From positions 1-56,146 of the forward strand of contig DHRA01000025.1 of the NCBI GenBank assembly GCA_002411145.1: a stretch of DNA of 56,146 bases, read 5' to 3'. The DNA comes from Firmicutes bacterium UBA5324. Its GTDB lineage: Bacteria > Bacillota > Negativicutes > UBA11029. This document shows positions 24,854 to 34,000 of the stretch, piece after piece. The notes below the pieces were generated by a model. It was given only the letters and a program-made list of their open reading frames with translations, was not told where the DNA came from and searched no databases. Position numbers and translations under genes: made by a program. Positions within the stretch are counted from its first letter, which is position 1, and every line of letters starts with the position of its first letter.

Positions 24854-25195
24854 GTGGCAATGGATATACTGAAAGCGAAGGACAATGAGCATGTTGCACT
24901 GGCTGAACTAAAGAAACGTGTACAAGAGAAAACGGCAGTCGAGAAAGTTGTTGTTTTTGGTTCGGTAGCTCGCGGCGAGGCAACAGAAGACTCCGATCTG
25001 GATGTATTGATTCTTACGGAAGAGCCAATTTCCTATACGGAGGAAACTTTTATATTTGATATAACGTTCTTTGTTAACCTGGAGTATGATACCAACATTA
25101 GCGTAGTGGTTATTCCAAAGGAAAAATGGGAATCTCCTGTCTGGTCGCTGCTACCACTTCATCAGGCAATTGCCAGAGAGGGAATTGCCGTATGA
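24854..25195 (+). CDS. nucleotidyltransferase-domain protein (MNT-type antitoxin)
   Basis: GTG at 24854 is 8 nt after GGGAGG; alternatives are ATG 24860 and TTG 24830. Minimal NTase motif VVVFGSVARGEATEDSDLDVLIL. Confidence 0.8.
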   Translation: MAMDILKAKDNEHVALAELKKRVQEKTAVEKVVVFGSVARGEATEDSDLDVLILTEEPISYTEETFIFDITFFVNLEYDTNISVVVIPKEKWESPVWSLLPLHQAIAREGIAV

Positions 25196-25596
25196 CCGCG
25201 GAAGGCAATGTGAAAGAGTTAGCGCGTTACTGGCTGAGCAAGTCGCTGGAGGCGGAAGAAGGTGCGATGTTGCTGTTTGAGCATCGGCAATGGCCGGCCT
25301 GCGTCAGTAGGCTGTATTATGCCTCATTTTATGCTATGAGTGCGCTTCTTGCGTTGCGGCAGTTAAGCTACGGAAAGCATTCCGCTGTTAGGGCCAGCTT
25401 GCATAGAGATTTTGTAAAAATGGATGTATTGCCTGTAGAGGCAGGCATGGTGTACAATCGGCTATTTGAATGGAGACAAAAGGCCGATTACGAAGCTTTT
25501 CTAGAAATGAATGAGCAAATGGCTGAAGATCTTTTAACACAAGCCAGGGATTTGCTTGAAGTGTTGCGCAAACACGCAGAGGCTGAGATTGGCTGA
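25192..25596 (+). CDS. HEPN-domain protein (toxin partner of MNT)
   Basis: 134 aa. The ATG at 25192 overlaps the upstream stop (ATGA). All-helical, with SRLYYASFYA and a WRQKADY HEPN-type motif. Confidence 0.8.
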   Translation: MTAEGNVKELARYWLSKSLEAEEGAMLLFEHRQWPACVSRLYYASFYAMSALLALRQLSYGKHSAVRASLHRDFVKMDVLPVEAGMVYNRLFEWRQKADYEAFLEMNEQMAEDLLTQARDLLEVLRKHAEAEIG

Positions 25597-25723: not shown

Positions 25724-25759
25724 TGAGACATAATTCACCTTATGTGGTGGATTATGTCT
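25724..25759 (+). terminator. 10-bp perfect hairpin, possible weak terminator after the TA pair
   Basis: gagacataat - 16 nt - attatgtctc. Only a short T tract follows. Confidence 0.3.
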
Positions 25760-25896
25760 CTTGACTTAAATGGGATAATATTGCTAGCGAGCCGTGAAAA
25801 GCTTAAGAAGAGTGCATTCATTTCAGCATCGATAGCCTTAGTTGGTTATAGCGGATATGGAGTAAAATAAGAATGGGAAACAATGATTGTCATCGG

Positions 25897-25927: not shown

Positions 25928-25955
25928 AATGGTGATTGCCCAGGAGGTGCTGTTT

Positions 25956-26951
25956 TTGAGAGAAACGATTGCCCACTATATAGCCAACTCCACCCGCAAG
26001 ACGCTCAATATTAAAGATTTTATTCCTTATTATCGCTATAGCGATTTGGTGGACGAAATCAAATCGCTGGTTACTAAAGGAGTACTAATGCCACGCGGAA
26101 GGCTCAACGGATTGAAACAGTCACTATACCATTCATACACTATTCACCGTGCGCCGAACGAGCAGTTACTTATTGAGATCCGCAATCTACCGCCTTACCT
26201 GCAGAATCAGTATTATGTCCAGCACCCCAAAGCTTATCAAGAGGACAAGCCTTATATAGATAGGCTATGCGACTTTTATGAAAATAATAAAGACCTACTT
26301 TCGTTTCCAGCGACGCTTAACGAACGGGCCTATCAGTTGGTTGGTAATGAAAAGTGGTTGTTGCCTAAATTTGGCGGGTTGGCAGTACTTACTCGGCTTG
26401 GTATCGCGATTGAAAGTCTGAATGTGTTTGCTACGCCTGAACCCTTTCATTATGTGCAGTATAACCAGTCGATTCGGACTGTGCTGATTTCCGAAAATAA
26501 AGATGCATTTTATGACATAAAAAAACTGGCGAAGGGGCTACCGTTTCGCTTGTGGAATGTCACGATTGACCTGTTAGTCTGGGGAGAGGGAAGTCACATC
26601 GAAAATAGCTTTGAATTTATGATTGAGCTAAATGCGATGCCAGACTTAGAAGTATTTTACTGGGGGGACCTCGACTATACCGGCATAGGAATTTTTACCC
26701 GGCTCATTGAGAAATTCCCCCAGAGCCGGATCGTGCCCCATTGTCAATTATATAAGGAAATGCTTGACCGGACGCCTAACCCGCCCGAACAGACTACAGC
26801 AGTTCGAGAAAAGGATAAGGAGATTCAGATATTTTTATCCTTTTTTGATGAACTTCAGCGACACAATATACAATCGCTCTTACTGCGAAATCGTCGCGTG
26901 CCGCAAGAGTCGGTCCCTTTCCATATCATGAGTAGGTTGGTGATGGCGTGA
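25956..26951 (+). CDS. Toprim-domain protein, JetD/MksG-like (putative nuclease subunit)
   Basis: 331 aa from the TTG at 25956, 8 nt after AGGAGG; the ORF extends up to 25887. C-terminal half: VLISENKDAF (Toprim Glu, codon 26493-26495), then FYWGDLDYTGIGIF (DxD, 26667-26675) and a terminal RVPQES. This ENK ... GD-D--G pattern is as in Topo VI-A/Spo11-like Toprim and DUF2220. Confidence 0.7.
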   Translation: MRETIAHYIANSTRKTLNIKDFIPYYRYSDLVDEIKSLVTKGVLMPRGRLNGLKQSLYHSYTIHRAPNEQLLIEIRNLPPYLQNQYYVQHPKAYQEDKPYIDRLCDFYENNKDLLSFPATLNERAYQLVGNEKWLLPKFGGLAVLTRLGIAIESLNVFATPEPFHYVQYNQSIRTVLISENKDAFYDIKKLAKGLPFRLWNVTIDLLVWGEGSHIENSFEFMIELNAMPDLEVFYWGDLDYTGIGIFTRLIEKFPQSRIVPHCQLYKEMLDRTPNPPEQTTAVREKDKEIQIFLSFFDELQRHNIQSLLLRNRRVPQESVPFHIMSRLVMA

Positions 26952-28501
26952 ACGATTATTTCAGTGATTTTGAAACACGAATACGAAACTTAGCGCCCCT
27001 ACAATACCTAGCGACCCGGACGCAAGACTTTCAACGTTCCTATACATATCCTCTTTACCCGATGGCACTTGGCATGCTTATTCTGATCTATGAAGGTATG
27101 CTCATTAATGAACATCACTCGGCTCAATCGCTCGCGAACGAAATGCGCAAGCGCTGGACAGGCATTTTGGTTGCCAATAAGCAGGGCGATATCGATACAG
27201 TAGTGCAGGTATTATTGTTTTCAATCCTGCAAAACGATGGCATACCCTACGTCTATAGTGATATTATACCGACAACAGGAGCTACAGTCGAAGTCCCTGT
27301 TAAATTAATAGAAACCGCTGACTTTGATATTTCACAGTCGTACGCGACTTTTCGCTTAACCAGTCAGGGACTCGAACTACTTTATGCATCAAAAGAAATA
27401 CCCGGTGAACTCCAGCTCACAATCGAACAGTTATACCTACGGCAGCAATATGAGGGGGGCCACTTTAATCAAGCCCTGCAGCACATCCAAAACATTTATC
27501 AAATCATCCGTTTACTTTCGCAGGATATCGACCAAACCAGTCGCGCTTTAATGGCCGATGCCTTTAGTGTACAGTTTGAAGATTTTGAACAGGTTATCCA
27601 CCGCAAGACCGAGATCAACCAGCGCGAAAAAAAGGAGTTTATGCTACTTCATACCAAAGTCCGCCAAGATCGGAAAAGTGTGGAGGACCAGGAGATTCGC
27701 AACCAAAAAGATGACGATGCACTCCTAATGCTGCGACGCATCGAATCCAATCTACAGGGCTTAGTGAAAGAACATGTCCGACTGCTCAATAAGACGCAAG
27801 ACCTCAACTCTCGGTTTTTAGAATCGCGGCGGCAACGCATCGCTCTGGCTTTACGGCGGCAGATTCACTACCGGAATGATATTCTGACGCCATGCATCGA
27901 AGAAAATCCACCCATTGAAATGGCCTATCACGGCATCTACTTTTTATTTCGGCAACGCCCCTCACACTTTAGCCCGCTCTGGTGTTTTCATAATCAACTG
28001 CCCAAAATCATACGAAGCGATGAAATCGAAACAGCAGATGATTATAGCCCTGACGAAGAAGCCGCTGAACGGCTAGCCGAACAGCGCAGATACGAAGCCA
28101 GCTTTTACCGGCACGCCCTTAGCCGATTTATCCGCAGGATGACGCCAGGCGAACCTCTATCCATCAGTCAATTTTTTACGCTCAGCGATAGTGAGCGGCG
28201 CAAATATGAAAACAGTTTCCATTTTTTCTTTATTTTCATTCAGCTTTACCGGATCGGGGTACTTGATCTAAGCAAGTTGACGAAAGAGGATTTGATTTAT
28301 AGTGAAAATGAGCCGATTGATATTACCCAAATTATTGCCCGCCACCGGGTTGATCACCCGGAATCTTATCCAGGACGCTATATTGTGGTGAGCGGCAACG
28401 GCAAGACTTATGTGACAAGCGGCGGTGCAAGCATAACTGACTTTGCTCTCCATATCGTTGATTCGATTGAGGAGGTGGCGCTTGATGTATACACAGGATG
28501 A
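26948..28501 (+). CDS. unknown 517-aa protein, candidate kleisin-like (JetA/MukF-position) subunit
   Basis: The GTG start overlaps the upstream stop (GTGA). Its size, predicted helical character and its position before a small protein and an SMC-like ATPase parallel jetA/mukF. I recognise no diagnostic motif. Confidence 0.45.
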   Translation: MNDYFSDFETRIRNLAPLQYLATRTQDFQRSYTYPLYPMALGMLILIYEGMLINEHHSAQSLANEMRKRWTGILVANKQGDIDTVVQVLLFSILQNDGIPYVYSDIIPTTGATVEVPVKLIETADFDISQSYATFRLTSQGLELLYASKEIPGELQLTIEQLYLRQQYEGGHFNQALQHIQNIYQIIRLLSQDIDQTSRALMADAFSVQFEDFEQVIHRKTEINQREKKEFMLLHTKVRQDRKSVEDQEIRNQKDDDALLMLRRIESNLQGLVKEHVRLLNKTQDLNSRFLESRRQRIALALRRQIHYRNDILTPCIEENPPIEMAYHGIYFLFRQRPSHFSPLWCFHNQLPKIIRSDEIETADDYSPDEEAAERLAEQRRYEASFYRHALSRFIRRMTPGEPLSISQFFTLSDSERRKYENSFHFFFIFIQLYRIGVLDLSKLTKEDLIYSENEPIDITQIIARHRVDHPESYPGRYIVVSGNGKTYVTSGGASITDFALHIVDSIEEVALDVYTG

Positions 28502-29243
28502 TATTAAGGCGGCGGTGCAAGCTTTTTATCGCCTATTAGATATAGGCGAACTAACTGCCAAAGATCCGCTATTGCCCGCTTTGCGTTGCCCGGAAATTCA
28601 AGAAGTATTGAGTATCCTGGCGGACGAGGCCGCCATGACGGTACTATATAATCTGCCTACGGCGGCATATCTGTTGCCCCGGGAACCATTCAGCATATTC
28701 AGCTATCGCAATGAAGAGCTTGTGAAGATTTTTGGCGGCACGCCAAACAACGATAAACTCTATACTTGCTACGTTATCATCATGATCTTCCTGGCTGAGT
28801 TTTACTCGTCCAACAACTATACTGCCCAGAGCCGTGACTTTATTTCCTTCCGCGACTTTTTCAGTTTAGTCAATGATACCATGGATGCCATGCTGGCCCG
28901 GCCGGAAATTGACGAAGTTTCGCAGTCGGTTAACATCCGCTTTAGCGACGGTGCTAAGTACTGGACAAGCCTGAATTCCTTTGATCCGCGAGCCAACCGA
29001 CAGGTCGGCGGACAGCGGAGCGACCAGGTCTCGTATATGGAAAAGGTCTTAGGCATTCTGCAGAATCATAAATTTATTACGGTCGACAACCTGCAACGAA
29101 AAGAACTCTCCGATAACTCGATTATTTACGTGACACCGAAACTAACCGCCTTTATGATCGGTTACTACGGTAATGAGGAGCGTAAAAAGCAGCTTCTCAA
29201 GTATATTCGTGAAGGAGTTATGCCTGATGCCATGCCTCAATAG
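28485..29243 (+). CDS. unknown 252-aa protein, candidate KITE-like (JetB/MukE-position) subunit
   Basis: ATG at 28485 is 9 nt after GAGGAGG and overlaps the upstream gene by 17 nt. Size and position parallel jetB/mukE. The C-terminal KVLGILQNHKFITVDN...IIYVTPKL looks like a winged-helix module. Confidence 0.45.
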   Translation: MYTQDDIKAAVQAFYRLLDIGELTAKDPLLPALRCPEIQEVLSILADEAAMTVLYNLPTAAYLLPREPFSIFSYRNEELVKIFGGTPNNDKLYTCYVIIMIFLAEFYSSNNYTAQSRDFISFRDFFSLVNDTMDAMLARPEIDEVSQSVNIRFSDGAKYWTSLNSFDPRANRQVGGQRSDQVSYMEKVLGILQNHKFITVDNLQRKELSDNSIIYVTPKLTAFMIGYYGNEERKKQLLKYIREGVMPDAMPQ

Positions 29244-32200
29244 GGTGCGCTACGTCAACTTCCGGTATGGACAAAACGGGTCTATGGTGATGCGGGACAA
29301 AAGCTTTGATCTGGCAGGGGAAAGTACCCTGTTTAACTTAGTGAACTCCGGCGGAAAAACATCCCTTATCCATATGATGGCGCAAGCAGTTATCCCGAAC
29401 GCCAGCTTTGATAAACGGAAACTGGATCTTTATTTTCAGGGCGAACCACACACTACCCACGTTCTTATCGAATGGGTGCTGGATGGCGACAGCGGCTATT
29501 TATTAACCGGTTTTTGTGCCAAGGGCGGACATGGGCAAGTGCAGCGATGGCTTGCCTATCAGCACCATTACTATTATGACAATCCGTTTTCGCTGGATCG
29601 CATACCGGTTATCGTTGACGATCAAGTAACTCTCTATGATAAATTCAGTAGTATTTTACGCCAGGCCAAGCAAAGCGGGACATCCTTATCTGTCTACTTC
29701 GATGATGAGAAAACCAAGTATATGAACGACCTTATCAACTACGGCATCATCGCGAAAGAATGGGAAATGCATCTGCGCATTAACATGAAAGAGACGGACG
29801 GACTCAGAGCTTATTATGGCAAGTGGAAAACCTCAAAGGAGCTAATGGAACACGAAATTATTCCCAAGATTGACGATAAAGTACAAGCTAAGCAGCCGCT
29901 AAGCGACTATCATGCCTGTCTGCAAAAGCATTACAGTCAGTTGTGCCAGGAGCCCCGTATTCGGGCCGAAATCGCCGATCTGCGTGCGTTGGAACCGATG
30001 ATTGCAAAATGGAGCAGCGCAGCTGAGCAACTGGAAATTGCAGAACAGGCACAAGCGGCGGCGGATACGGAACTGTCACGATTCCGGCTTGGAGTGACAG
30101 AACAGGCCGATGATGTGGAGGCTGGACTAACAGAAGCGCAGGAAAAAGAAACATCCCTAATCGCACGGCAGCGGCAAACTGAATTTGAGATAAAGTCGCT
30201 GGAGCTTTATAATGTTAGAGCGACAATTGCCGAAATCAATCATTTAATTAGTGTTAAAGAGACGGGGATACAGGCGGATGAGGCCGAACGAGCAGGTATT
30301 CAGACACGTCTGACAGAAGCTCTGGCCGTTGATTTGTTCCGTATCCTTGAAGACCGCGAATACGATGTCGAGAAGCTTAGAACTGAACAACATAATGCTG
30401 CTGCCGGTCAAGAGGAATTGAAGGAAAAACTCATCACTACCGGCAGTATTCTTGCTGCTTATGCCCGAGCCGCTATTGAACGGCTGGATCAGGAGATTGC
30501 CACTTACAAGCAAAAGATGCTCGCTCTTGAACAAGGCAGGCAGGATACCGAACAGGCGGTGGCTGGCGATCAGCAGCAACTACAGCAGGTATCAGCCCGT
30601 GTCGAAGTATTGAAGTATCAAATTCAGCAGTTTACGGATGGAGTCTATAAAGAGGCCGAAGACGCACTCTCGCCGCTTGAGTTTATTGACCTTGAAACTG
30701 CTCCAGACGCATTCGTTGTCAAAGCGGATAGGAATCTCAAACAGCTTGAGAAAATTAGCAAAGAGGTTAATGCCTGCTTAAGCGAGGCGCAAAGCCGCAA
30801 AGAATCCCTTTTAACACAGGTAACGGAGCTGGAAAAAACGCTGCAGCAATGGCAATTTGCCCGCGAGCGGCAGGTGGATTTCTGCAAACGCCACGAAAAA
30901 GCGGAAACTGATATCATGGCTCGTCTGATAGGGTTCGTCACAGATGCGCAGGATGTTTATAATGCGCGAGCGAAAACCAAAATGGCGGAACGCCGGCAGC
31001 ATTATGAAGCTAGGTATAAAGACTGTGAGGAGCGTTTGCGCGAGTTATGGCCCGAGCAAAAGAAACTGAGCGGTGATTTCTATGTGGCGACTGGCCATAT
31101 TACGACCCTAGTCAGCGAATTACACCGGATTGGTATTCAAGAAGCCATTGCCGGCAGCGCGTATCTACTCAACCAACCGAACGCCGACAGTTTATTGGCT
31201 TTGCACCCGGAACTGCCATATGCCGTTGTTGTCAACCGACAGTCGATCAGCAGGTTGCAGCAGCGCTCTAACGCGTTGGCGATCTCGGCGCCTACGATAC
31301 TATTAGCCCGGGAAAGTCTCGGCGATAACGTCTCTGCCGAGGCGGAAAGCTTTGTTATTACACTAGCCAAGGATATCCATGCCGTGCGCCCGGATGATTT
31401 TCGCTACTACCTTTCCCGCGAAGAATATACTACTCTCAAAACCAAGGTTCAGAATGAAGTGGATCAGATGGAGCAAGAGAAAACAGTTTGCCGCAACCAG
31501 CAAAGTCATATTTCCGGTTTGCTTGACGCTGCTAACCAGTATCTTGAAAACTTCCCGCTGGATGCCTATCTGGCAGTACAGGCTGAAGTCCGCCGGATTG
31601 AGGGTGAAATTAGTGATCTCACCGAGCAGAGCGGTATACTGAAAGGAGATATTAAACAATTAACCACGACCATTGACGAGTTGATAACCCGTGCTGCCGC
31701 TGCCGTAACCAATGTCAACGCGACGGCGGCGCTTAAGGCACTGGTTGAACGGTTTACCAGGGATCACCGTGCAAATGCTGAAACTAAACAGCAGCTCGCG
31801 ACTTGCGAAAAACAACTGGCTGAACTGCAAGGAAAATTTGATGAAGGCAAACGATGTATAGACCGTATTCATAATGAGCAGCGGCAAACTGAACGGCTCA
31901 TTTATAATACCGAACGGCTAAAAGAAGAGCCGGACGACATTTTAGAAGCCGTAATGGGATACTCCCAACCCATTAGCTGCGATACAGCAGCGGTGGACTC
32001 GAACCGCCTTAGTGCTGAGTTTCAAGGCCTCAAAACGTTGTACGAAGGAACGGTTCAGGAGGCTGATTTACTGGCTCGTAAGATTATGGAGGCGGAGCGG
32101 GCTCGCAATAAAGCCGAGCGGGAATTTACCGAGCTCGGCGTGAACCGTGAACGCTGCAAACAGCTTTATCCACAAACTGACTATGTGAAAGATCAATGGA

Positions 32201-33582
32201 GAAAGCAAATCAGCGAATTAACCGAATTAATTCGTTGTCACGAAATGGAAAAAATGCGTCTGACCGGAAAGCTCGATTCACCGCAAGAGGCGGAAACTAA
32301 ACTGCTGAAGGACATACACCGCCACTTTGGATACGAACCGCAAACCGAGTTTGATGATGGTGTGACGCTCGATTCTCTTGCCGAATTAAGCAAGCGAATT
32401 AAAGCTGCAATTGCTGAAGTGGGCAAGGTTATCGAAGAACATAAAAAGCGGCTTGATATATTGACCAACATAAAAAACAGCTTGAAAGAAGAGCAGCTGT
32501 CGCCCGTTAACGATCCCTTACCCTTTGCTTTCAGCGACGCTTTGATGCTTTCGGCTAAACTGGGGAAAGCCCGGAGCCAAGCGGCCGTGAACGTCGCCAC
32601 AGCGAGAAGTGTCGTAACGCAGGCGGTCCATGCTCTTAGCCGCTACGAACGCATTAGTGATTCGAAACCGGTTGAAGATTTGGTTCGCAAATTCGGTAGC
32701 GGTGATACCGCGTTATTTAGCGGCGAAGTCGCCCGCAAGAAAGCACAAGAGATCAGCATGATCATTGAAGATCAAGTACGGGCGCTGGAACTACAAAAGG
32801 CCAGGATCGACGAAGACCGTAATGAGATTATTGACAGTCTTCTCAAATGGACTGAATTCGCCAATGACGAGATCCACGAACTTGTGTCCTGCTCGCGCAT
32901 TAAACTACAGGATAGCCGACGCGCCCTGGTCGAGATCCGAAAGCTTGAAAAGCCGAGTGAGGAGCAAATGCGTGAACGCCTGGCACTATTCATTACCGAG
33001 ATTATCGGCAAACTTAACGATAACTACCAGGCCGACGCTGATGAAGCCAAGCTCACCGTGGCTATTGCGGGTTATCTTTCAGCATATAACATTCTAGATA
33101 AGACTGTTAATGTCAGCGCGGCAGAAGTTATGGTATGGCTCGCTGAAATCAACCCTGGTGCAAGCCGGATGATTCCATGGGAAGAGGGGCAGTCGGGTGG
33201 ACAAGGCCTGTTAACCGCCTTTGTAATGTACATAACGTTGATGACATATACCAGTAAGGAACATGGTAAGATTAATCAGACAAAGACGTTGTTTGCAGAT
33301 AATCCCTTTGGGATAGCGAATGCCGAACATCTTTTGACAGTATTGTTTGGTATTTTGCATGAAAACCGTATTCAACTGATGGCTTATACCGGTATCGAAG
33401 ACAAGAATATCTATCGCCGGTTTCCCCGCGTTTTCTTACTGCGACCGGTTGATTCGGCCAATAAGCGATACACCGTTCTTCATACCGAACAAATCAAATC
33501 CGGCAGCGGAACTATTGCCCTACAGGAGGCGGTCGCACGGCGGGTTGATCTCATGAACTATTCGCTGTTTGATGAAGAATAG
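29227..33582 (+). CDS. SMC/MukB-like ATPase with very long coiled coils (JetC/MksB-like)
   Basis: 1451 aa from the ATG at 29227, 9 nt after GAAGGAG, with a 17-nt overlap. N-terminal P-loop LVNSGGKTS (29344-29364). Two Glu/Gln/Arg/Lys/Leu-rich helical arms of roughly 500 aa each. Central non-coiled hinge-like segment (about 31100-31450: GIQEAIAGSAYLLNQPNADSLLALHPELPYAVVVN). C-terminal ABC signature QSGGQ (33190-33204) and Walker B-like TLFADNPFG (33286-33312). Confidence 0.75.
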   Translation: MPCLNRVRYVNFRYGQNGSMVMRDKSFDLAGESTLFNLVNSGGKTSLIHMMAQAVIPNASFDKRKLDLYFQGEPHTTHVLIEWVLDGDSGYLLTGFCAKGGHGQVQRWLAYQHHYYYDNPFSLDRIPVIVDDQVTLYDKFSSILRQAKQSGTSLSVYFDDEKTKYMNDLINYGIIAKEWEMHLRINMKETDGLRAYYGKWKTSKELMEHEIIPKIDDKVQAKQPLSDYHACLQKHYSQLCQEPRIRAEIADLRALEPMIAKWSSAAEQLEIAEQAQAAADTELSRFRLGVTEQADDVEAGLTEAQEKETSLIARQRQTEFEIKSLELYNVRATIAEINHLISVKETGIQADEAERAGIQTRLTEALAVDLFRILEDREYDVEKLRTEQHNAAAGQEELKEKLITTGSILAAYARAAIERLDQEIATYKQKMLALEQGRQDTEQAVAGDQQQLQQVSARVEVLKYQIQQFTDGVYKEAEDALSPLEFIDLETAPDAFVVKADRNLKQLEKISKEVNACLSEAQSRKESLLTQVTELEKTLQQWQFARERQVDFCKRHEKAETDIMARLIGFVTDAQDVYNARAKTKMAERRQHYEARYKDCEERLRELWPEQKKLSGDFYVATGHITTLVSELHRIGIQEAIAGSAYLLNQPNADSLLALHPELPYAVVVNRQSISRLQQRSNALAISAPTILLARESLGDNVSAEAESFVITLAKDIHAVRPDDFRYYLSREEYTTLKTKVQNEVDQMEQEKTVCRNQQSHISGLLDAANQYLENFPLDAYLAVQAEVRRIEGEISDLTEQSGILKGDIKQLTTTIDELITRAAAAVTNVNATAALKALVERFTRDHRANAETKQQLATCEKQLAELQGKFDEGKRCIDRIHNEQRQTERLIYNTERLKEEPDDILEAVMGYSQPISCDTAAVDSNRLSAEFQGLKTLYEGTVQEADLLARKIMEAERARNKAEREFTELGVNRERCKQLYPQTDYVKDQWRKQISELTELIRCHEMEKMRLTGKLDSPQEAETKLLKDIHRHFGYEPQTEFDDGVTLDSLAELSKRIKAAIAEVGKVIEEHKKRLDILTNIKNSLKEEQLSPVNDPLPFAFSDALMLSAKLGKARSQAAVNVATARSVVTQAVHALSRYERISDSKPVEDLVRKFGSGDTALFSGEVARKKAQEISMIIEDQVRALELQKARIDEDRNEIIDSLLKWTEFANDEIHELVSCSRIKLQDSRRALVEIRKLEKPSEEQMRERLALFITEIIGKLNDNYQADADEAKLTVAIAGYLSAYNILDKTVNVSAAEVMVWLAEINPGASRMIPWEEGQSGGQGLLTAFVMYITLMTYTSKEHGKINQTKTLFADNPFGIANAEHLLTVLFGILHENRIQLMAYTGIEDKNIYRRFPRVFLLRPVDSANKRYTVLHTEQIKSGSGTIALQEAVARRVDLMNYSLFDEE

Positions 33583-33720
33583 CAACATGGATTGCTGGTT
33601 GTCCATGTTGCGTAAAGTAAACTATAATTAGGGTGTTCTCTTCTGTTCTGTTATCAGCTGTTATTATTCCATTACCACAGTGTTCAAATCCACCCTTTTT
33701 ACAAAAAAAGGAATAATTAA

Positions 33721-33766
33721 AACCGCGAATTGTTTGGATGTATGACAGACAATTCGCGGTTTTTTG
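33721..33766 (+). terminator. rho-independent terminator of the island operon
   Basis: aaccgcgaattgt - loop - acaattcgcggtt (13-bp perfect stem) followed by TTTTT. Confidence 0.75.
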
Positions 33767-33880
33767 CTGTATATTTGGTATATTGGTATAGGCATAGATG
33801 AAAGAAGCGTTTTATTATTAATTGGCTAAGAGCGGATTTTCCCGCGGGGTATATCTTTTTTGCTAAAGCATATAATTTAA

Positions 33881-33908
33881 CCACCGGAAAAAGCCGGTGG
33901 ATTTTTTT
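33881..33908 (+). terminator. second rho-independent terminator upstream of mntP
   Basis: ccaccgg-aaaaag-ccggtgg followed by ATTTTTTT. Confidence 0.65.
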
Positions 33909-34000
33909 GGGCTATCGGCCATAATCCATACCGTACATGAATGCGGAGGCAAACTCCGCCGCTGCGGCTCGGCGCAAGTCTAATGACTAAGGAGGTTGCA

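Follow-up and report, generated by a model that had tools for sequence, protein, structure and literature searches.

Gene content and family assignment of the operon

The 56,146-nt stretch of DNA analyzed here (contig DHRA01000025.1 of Firmicutes bacterium UBA5324, assembly GCA_002411145.1; called the window below, at its full length) carries four overlapping plus-strand genes in a region of lowered GC content. These genes, jetD, jetA, jetB and jetC, in that order, very probably represent a complete and apparently intact type III Wadjet anti-plasmid system, located on a horizontally acquired chromosomal island of about 9 kb in an uncultured member of the Bacillota. The four open reading frames (25887/25956-26951, 26948-28501, 28443/28485-29243 and 29173/29227-33582) encode products of 331 (340 if translation starts at ATG 25929), 517, 252 and 1451 amino acids (aa); the overlaps between neighboring genes are 4, 17 and 17 nt, and jetB and jetC are each preceded by a ribosome-binding site of the GGAGG type. 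An earlier note on this DNA, which was made from the letters alone, had described four overlapping plus-strand genes, their sizes, the codons of their motifs and the low-GC island, and was correct in every detail that was checked.

All four proteins are matched by the type III Wadjet models of PADLOC (JetD3, JetA3, JetB3 and JetC3), which cover protein and model near full length, and the type I models JetA1, JetB1 and JetC1 did not match the window proteins. The proposal of a Wadjet-class system composed of a Toprim nuclease, a kleisin, a presumed KITE subunit and an SMC (structural maintenance of chromosomes) subunit is borne out by these matches. The further suggestion of a divergent, undescribed subtype or of a new system finds no support, since the E values obtained with the existing type III models range from 1e-42 to 1e-83. 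The locus is a divergent additional member of an already classified anti-plasmid family, and neither a new subtype nor a new arrangement. What the analysis supports directly are the families of the four subunits, the catalytic residues of JetD, the P-loop and signature of JetC, the MukF-like fold of JetA, the D-A-B-C operon and the island. The main value of the result is that it corrects an over-reading, as this is a textbook-class defense system in which the seemingly odd gene order is the norm of the family.

Searches against Pfam and NCBIfam recognized nothing in JetA3 or JetC3, and at NCBI all four proteins are listed from Bacillota metagenome-assembled genomes (MAGs) as 'hypothetical protein', so naming them is useful. 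The concern that a standard caller might miss this locus was justified with regard to general annotation (NCBI, Pfam and NCBIfam), which is blind to JetA3 and JetC3, but not with regard to the hidden Markov models of PADLOC, which match every subunit. The coordinates of the genes, motifs and neighboring features are given in Table 1.

Table 1. Features of the jetDABC locus and its surroundings, with positions in the window
Feature	Position	Strand	Basis or remark
MNT nucleotidyltransferase/HEPN toxin-antitoxin pair, 4-nt overlap	24860..25596	+	Pfam NTP_transf_2/Polbeta and HEPN on identical genes L001-L004; no Wadjet component
jetD (type III), 331 aa	25956..26951	+	C-terminal Toprim nuclease domain; N-terminal region poorly characterized
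Toprim catalytic Glu codon GAA, Glu180 (331-aa numbering), in ISENKD	26493..26495	+	Codon checked
Toprim DxD metal-binding motif, GAC CTC GAC = Asp-Leu-Asp, in YWGDLDY	26667..26675	+	Codons checked
jetA (type III), 517 aa, MukF-like kleisin	26948..28501	+	PADLOC JetA3; GTG start overlapping jetD stop by 4 nt
jetB (type III), 252 aa, DUF6063, presumed KITE subunit	28485..29243	+	PADLOC JetB3; overlaps jetA by 17 nt
jetC (type III), 1451 aa, head-arm-hinge-arm-head SMC-like ATPase	29227..33582	+	PADLOC JetC3; overlaps jetB by 17 nt
Walker A P-loop N40-S-G-G-K44-T, Lys codon AAA 29356-29358	29344..29361	+	Codon checked
Approximate hinge, residues ~610-725, block AGSAYLLNQ...PELPYAVVV	31054..31401	+	Conservation; boundaries rough
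ABC signature S-G-G-Q, residues 1323-1326	33193..33204	+	S1323 and G1324 invariant
Variant Walker B hhhh-Asp1358-Asn1359-Pro-Phe	33298..33309	+	Asn in place of canonical catalytic Glu
Likely operon terminator, hairpin with 18-nt arms followed by T run, ~140 nt past jetC stop	33719..33770	+	Inverted repeat I3, 94% complementary
Second terminator-like hairpin, between jetC and mntP	33881..33909

The nuclease subunit JetD

The product of jetD matched the PADLOC JetD3 model with an E value of 3.4e-71 (residues 13-336), PADLOC JetD1 models with E values down to 3e-10 and the Pfam family JetD_C (PF09983) with an E value of 6.3e-12. In the JetD3 alignment, the Toprim Glu (E189 in the numbering of the 340-aa product) and the two Asp residues of the DxD motif (Asp238 and Asp240, or D247 and D249 in the 340-aa numbering) are invariant. 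The codons that had been quoted for these residues are right, and the first gene is JetD-like with a Toprim domain, as had been proposed. The Glu is equivalent to the JetD Toprim Glu that is needed for plasmid restriction by Bacillus systems.

Automated gene callers picked ATG 25929 as the start of jetD. The TTG codon at 25956, which had been chosen in the earlier note, is the better start, because a ribosome-binding site (AGGAGGTG, 25941-25948) is found 8 nt ahead of it and because JetD homologues of 327-331 aa start exactly at this position.

The kleisin JetA and the presumed KITE subunit JetB

JetA matched the PADLOC JetA3 model over residues 1-505 (E = 8.2e-55). In an HMMER search that covered 1.84 billion representative proteins exhaustively, the JetA3 family amounted to 190 clusters (50% identity, E <= 1e-3), and nearly all of these proteins are 495-560 aa in length; by comparison, a word-indexed homologue search retrieved just 4-8 relatives for each subunit, even when the profile was built from 20 sequences. 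An AlphaFold2 model of JetA3, calculated from an alignment of 113 sequences with a mean pLDDT of 85.1, shows an N-terminal domain of helices and a sheet, a long helical bundle (residues 153-334), a disordered linker (335-369) and a C-terminal domain of helices with a hairpin. When this model was compared with 350,542 Protein Data Bank (PDB) chains by Foldseek, the top six matches were all MukF (9gm7_C with E = 8.3e-5, followed by 9gm9_D, 9gm7_D, 7nz2_C1 and 3euh_A/B), with E values from 8e-5 to 1e-2 and probabilities of 0.97-1.00, and Pseudomonas aeruginosa JetA was found at rank 34. Global TM-scores were low (approximately 0.2), which is expected because the kleisin chain is flexible and consists of several domains. 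Alignment of the JetA3 profile with the single Escherichia coli MukF sequence by hhalign was not significant (probability 3.4%). Judged by its model, JetA3 is a predicted kleisin of the MukF type, and the assignment of the second gene as a kleisin gene stands on this MukF-like fold.

JetB matched the PADLOC JetB3 model (E = 1.5e-42) and the Pfam family DUF6063 (E = 8.5e-36). Its AlphaFold2 model was poor (pLDDT 49.7), because only five close sequences were usable for the alignment, and a confident winged helix was obtained for residues 1-66 only; a KITE protein would have winged-helix domains in tandem. Foldseek matches of this poor model nevertheless began with five MukE chains and included P. 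aeruginosa and E. coli JetB at ranks 7, 8, 13 and 19 (E = 0.017-0.34, and 0.017-0.13 for the leading MukE and JetB chains), which is suggestive of a MukE/JetB-like fold and agrees weakly with the KITE role that had been proposed for the third gene. An hhalign comparison of the JetB3 profile with the single E. coli MukE sequence was not significant (probability 0.7%).

The SMC-like ATPase JetC and its variant Walker B motif

JetC matched the 1471-position PADLOC JetC3 model over residues 2-1425 (E = 4.1e-83). A crude scan for heptads and prolines, combined with family conservation, suggests a layout with an N-terminal head (approximately residues 1-250), a first arm (260-610), a conserved globular block (610-725), a second arm (725-1290) and a C-terminal head (1300-1451). 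The arms on both sides of the central block are heptad-rich and proline-poor. Within the block, which is the presumed hinge, conservation rises (I637 is invariant, and P661 and P664 are nearly so), prolines cluster and the heptad periodicity breaks. Residues N40, G43 and K44 of Walker A do not vary across 16 JetC3 family members. The N-terminal half of the head also contains the invariant residues Glu82, Asn186 and Glu189, and D1358 and Q1383 are invariant in the family alignment. JetC therefore has the predicted architecture of an SMC protein, in which a hinge and two long coiled-coil arms, running antiparallel, interrupt a head of the ABC type. A PDB search with the whole JetC3 profile was swamped by coiled-coil proteins (e.g., myosin and tropomyosin), and included the N-terminal head of type II JetC (9qe0, E = 4e-4) and a MukB arm (E = 2.4e-5). 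With the head motifs at the expected ends and invariant, and with a profile that reaches the type II JetC head, the description of the fourth gene product as a head-coiled-coil-hinge protein of the SMC type was well founded. The large size of this protein, which had been regarded as an oddity (MukB-sized rather than JetC-sized), is none within the family, as type III JetC proteins are 1431-1705 aa in length and long coiled coils are typical of them.

The codon given in the earlier note for the P-loop Lys was right, and the SGGQ signature (33193) and the Walker B Asp (33298) were confirmed as well, but the Walker B motif itself reads hhhhD-N and not hhhhD-E. The sequence Asp-Asn-Pro-Phe is invariant in 23 of 23 type III JetC sequences, including the Bacillus and Clostridium plasmid copies. 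An hhalign comparison of the JetC3 C-terminal head profile with the MukB C-terminal head gave a low probability (3%), and the alignment pairs three motifs in order, i.e., SGGE with STGE, hhhhDNPF with LLFLDEA, and the Q-L-I strand that follows; therefore, Asn1359 would take the position of the catalytic Glu. JetC3 thus lacks the canonical Walker B Glu of SMC and ABC ATPases. Since this Asn is shared by all of type III, it provides no argument against membership of the window protein in type III. This residue was not mentioned in the type II Wadjet preprint or in the literature covered by a full-text search.

The family-wide replacement of the Walker B Glu by Asn raises a concrete question on ATP turnover by this SMC motor and is the one lead from this locus that is worth following. 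A natural precedent is provided by Lamassu LmuB, another defense-associated SMC-like ATPase without the Walker B Glu, which has Gln at this position (PMC10586767). Type III JetC may go through an ATPase cycle other than the one of types I and II. If the alignment with MukB is right and there is no substitute residue, ATP hydrolysis by the type III motor could be very slow or could use another catalytic arrangement, although this is regarded as rather doubtful at present. If true, type III would sense plasmids by means of an ATPase cycle distinct from the one in types I and II and nearer to the natural Glu-to-Gln state of LmuB. As a matter of speculation, the invariant Glu82 or Glu189 might stand in for the missing Glu.

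A separate observation concerns Walker A in the Bacillus cereus group. JetC3 proteins encoded on megaplasmids of B. cereus (L037, 12416-16978) and Bacillus mycoides (L039, 11882-16441) have a Walker A that ends in GGKG instead of GK[ST] and lack the Mg2+-binding Ser/Thr of this motif, in addition to carrying the Walker B Asn, whereas the window JetC has the canonical GKT.

Gene order and distribution of related loci

A survey of a one-genome-per-species collection, anchored on JetD alone, retrieved 31 related loci, and the four window proteins were then searched against all open reading frames of these loci; because only JetD served as the anchor, the survey was unbiased as to the other genes. 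The loci were found in Clostridia, Ruminococcus, Erysipelotrichaceae, Allobaculum and others, with 26-49% identity. In every locus with enough downstream DNA (approximately 29 of the 31), the genes are tightly packed on one strand in the order D-A-B-C. The same order is present on four annotated megaplasmids (Clostridium perfringens pJFP838A and those of B. cereus strain A01, B. mycoides p481 and Pontibacillus sp. ALD_SL1), where RefSeq labels the genes, in order, 'Wadjet anti-phage system protein JetD domain-containing protein', hypothetical, 'DUF6063 family protein' and hypothetical. The gene order, which had been called permuted, is therefore the norm for type III, judged by the loci and plasmids of the present survey. 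Type III is said to have been defined by Doron et al. in 2018, reportedly with an operon of Bacillus thuringiensis serovar finitimus YBT-020 as the reference.

The recurrence of the four-gene block in dozens of unrelated genomes indicates that the association of these genes is not due to chance. Identity of the window proteins to other type III members is 13-36% for JetC and 15-49% for JetA, and the window system is a distant type III branch for which the only known hosts are uncultured Bacillota of fermentation metagenomes. The genes that flank the operon in the window recur at none of the 31 related loci, and the system therefore moves between genomes.

Comparison with known systems

Three Wadjet types have been defined by sequence and operon organization (PMC10586767). 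The window locus resembles type III in matching all four models, in the order D-A-B-C, in a JetB with DUF6063, in a long-armed JetC of about 1450 aa and in a short Toprim JetD (approximately 330-370 aa); it differs from the B. cereus-group copies in its Walker A, as described above. JetC proteins of Wadjet-III mostly have longer coiled coils and, as in MukB, no hinge channel, whereas in type I JetC the arms are shorter and the hinge contains a channel (PMC12647877).

Type I Wadjet, which is also described as MksBEFG or EptABCD (E. coli GF4-3, P. aeruginosa PA14, Corynebacterium glutamicum and Mycobacterium smegmatis), follows the same kleisin-KITE-SMC-Toprim logic. Its JetD has a Toprim domain recognizably homologous to that of the window JetD, and extrusion followed by cleavage of circular DNA is presumably shared. 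By contrast, type I operons have the order A-B-C-D (e.g., Clocel_0831-0834; PMC12287153) and not D-A-B-C, and the Walker B motif of type I JetC has Glu where the window JetC has Asn. When this Glu is mutated to Gln in type I, ATP is no longer hydrolyzed, DNA is not cleaved and plasmid loss in vivo is abolished (bioRxiv 10.1101/2022.10.04.510915).

The similarities with MukBEF comprise the best fold matches of JetA3 (MukF) and, on a weak model, of JetB3 (MukE), the MukB-like size of JetC3 and the kleisin-KITE-SMC order of genes 2 to 4, which, as had been pointed out, mirrors the MukBEF gene order. MukBEF differs in being a housekeeping complex without a nuclease subunit, in the canonical LLFLDEA Walker B of MukB and in the absence of significant sequence similarity. 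Lamassu was considered and rejected as an identity for the locus, as the match to LmuB was at the level of coiled coils only (E = 0.002); LmuB is a protein of about 650 aa with short arms, it is partnered by LmuA and LmuC, and the Lamassu system has no kleisin, KITE or Toprim subunit.

Alternative interpretations

The novelty that had been suggested for this locus, i.e., a Wadjet subtype not described before or a restriction system of a new kind built on an SMC protein, with a permuted gene order that puts the nuclease first, would be in line with the blank Pfam and NCBIfam results for JetA3 and JetC3, with the label 'hypothetical' on all four proteins at NCBI and with profiles that fall short of the solved type I and II subunits. 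It is very improbable in view of the full-length, high-scoring matches of all four proteins to the existing type III models and because the D-first order and the JetC of about 1450 aa are common to the whole family, including the plasmid loci with RefSeq-annotated JetD and DUF6063 proteins. The top structural matches to MukF for JetA3 and to MukE for JetB3, the MukB-like size of JetC3 and the surrounding core genes (prfA, prmC, sua5, mntP, rpiB, glyA and upp) could also be taken to indicate a housekeeping chromosome condensin similar to MukBEF or MksBEF, next to a Toprim gene without a role in defense. MukBEF and MksBEF are, however, nuclease-free three-gene housekeeping systems, while the window operon includes a translationally coupled jetD with intact Glu and DxD residues, GC content and GC skew mark the block as foreign, a toxin-antitoxin pair adjoins it, and its relatives show a patchy distribution in unrelated contexts, megaplasmids included. 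A condensin is thus as hard to credit here as a new subtype.

Taking into consideration that JetC is without the Walker B Glu and that one public MAG of the same organism (DEA44_08040-08080) contains a partial JetA (391 aa) and partial JetC proteins (454 and 613 aa), the operon could be a type III Wadjet by descent that has decayed or become inactive in this genome. The fragments in the DEA44 MAG reflect either assembly errors or decay in that population. In the window, on the other hand, all four reading frames are full-length and no family-invariant residue is missing, several independent metagenome contigs carry intact copies that are identical or nearly so, and the Walker B Asn is a trait of the family and no lesion of this copy, so that inactivity is scarcely more probable than the two preceding explanations. 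A few findings weigh against the interpretation as a functional type III Wadjet. The 'type III' label derives from the names of PADLOC models and from B. cereus-group homologues. Moreover, searches of all PDB chains with the JetA3, JetB3 and JetD3 profiles and with profiles of the N- and C-terminal heads of JetC3 gave no significant match to type I or II Wadjet or to MukBEF, and the link to the solved complexes therefore runs via PADLOC and Pfam for JetD and via the fold for JetA. The residue E298 reported in the literature for B. thuringiensis JetD does not fit JetD proteins of 331-373 aa, in which the Glu is at approximately residue 180-225. Finally, a JetC3 without the Walker B Glu fits poorly with a motor that needs repeated ATP hydrolysis. 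The interpretation of the locus as a type III Wadjet that is clean and intact, though very divergent, is nonetheless retained as very probable; type III is alone among the Wadjet types in being without a structure or biochemistry.

Proposed mode of action

In the literature, type III Wadjet "remains largely uncharacterized". Nevertheless, a type III operon of B. thuringiensis, when placed in Bacillus subtilis, has been reported to block the plasmids pHCMC05, pC194 and pLS20, of which one is theta-replicating, one is rolling-circle and one is a 65 kb conjugative plasmid, and this block depends on the Toprim Glu of JetD. It has also been proposed that the extrusion-cleavage principle extends to type III. 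Beyond family assignment and motif integrity, everything that can be said of the window locus is based on homology, and the mode of action outlined here was derived from the characterized types I and II.

By analogy with these systems, JetC dimers, with their ATPase heads, long arms and hinge, would be closed by JetA, a kleisin resembling MukF that would additionally link two motor units through its N-terminal part, and a KITE dimer of JetB would sit on the kleisin. JetABC would load onto DNA and reel it in, extruding it. On a small circle, extrusion could run to completion, so that the two kleisin-joined motors would meet and stall, and the trapped, bent DNA segment would be handed to a JetD dimer. 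The Toprim site of JetD (Glu180 and Asp238/Asp240) would then cut the DNA in a metal-dependent manner, and the plasmid would be linearized and lost, whereas the large chromosome and linear DNA would presumably escape cutting. If the host is ever cultured, this operon would represent a predictable barrier to plasmid-based genetics.

Genomic context

GC content is 0.42-0.49 over 25-34 kb of the window (0.415 at 25-26 kb), as compared with 0.50-0.59 in the flanks, and GC skew, which is approximately +0.15 in the all-plus-strand region, falls to between -0.11 and +0.03 at 26-30 kb. The order of genes across the region is prfA, prmC, sua5, MNT-HEPN, jetDABC, mntP, a gene for a low-molecular-weight phosphatase, rpiB, a DUF436 gene, glyA and upp. 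The MNT/HEPN pair is located directly upstream of jetD and inside the same low-GC island. In B. subtilis, sua5 (ywlC) and mntP (ywlD) are, we presume, neighbors, and this adjacency would make the MNT/HEPN pair and the Wadjet operon together an insertion of about 9 kb. A search for scars of integration around the island revealed no flanking direct repeats, tRNA genes or Rfam families. Several metagenome contigs, from fermentation and other sources, carry identical copies with the same surroundings.

As regards a possible co-transcription of the MNT/HEPN pair with the Wadjet genes, neither a terminator nor a convincing promoter was predicted in the AT-rich gap of 359 nt between the pair and jetD. 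This gap contains, at 25725-25760, an almost perfect inverted repeat of 15 nt (GAGACATAATTCACC / GGTGGATTATGTCTC) with a 6-nt spacer, which is not followed by a T run and could be an operator site. Downstream of jetC, the first hairpin and its T run probably end the operon. In the interval between jetC and mntP (33583-33940), a search at Rfam gathering thresholds gave no manganese riboswitch of the yybP-ykoY type.

Additional loci

Three of the loci encountered in these searches deserve a separate description. The jetDABC operon of a Methanosphaera sp. MAG (L021) has scores approximately identical to those of Clostridiales and Ruminococcus MAG contigs from the same study (L022 and L023), for which mis-binning is a likelier explanation than a type III Wadjet in an archaeon. 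In another locus (L041), a 515-aa JetA3-like protein (P0018; profile E = 6e-43) is encoded near the contig end at 207-1754. The genes next to it are for pyruvate kinase and polyamine functions, and neither JetB nor JetC follows; the JetA3-like gene may be an orphan or relocated kleisin gene. Pseudoalteromonas denitrificans DSM 6059 (L035, 1941-10699) carries a four-gene cluster encoding proteins of 452, 267, 1840 and 353 aa, in which the JetD-like gene is last. The JetD-like protein matches JetD1 (E = 1e-16) and JetD3 (E = 7e-13), and no PADLOC model was matched by the products of the three genes before it. A P-loop, an STGE signature and a Walker B that reads Asp-Gly-Leu-Phe are present in the 1840-aa protein, and the cluster may represent an unclassified Wadjet-like system.

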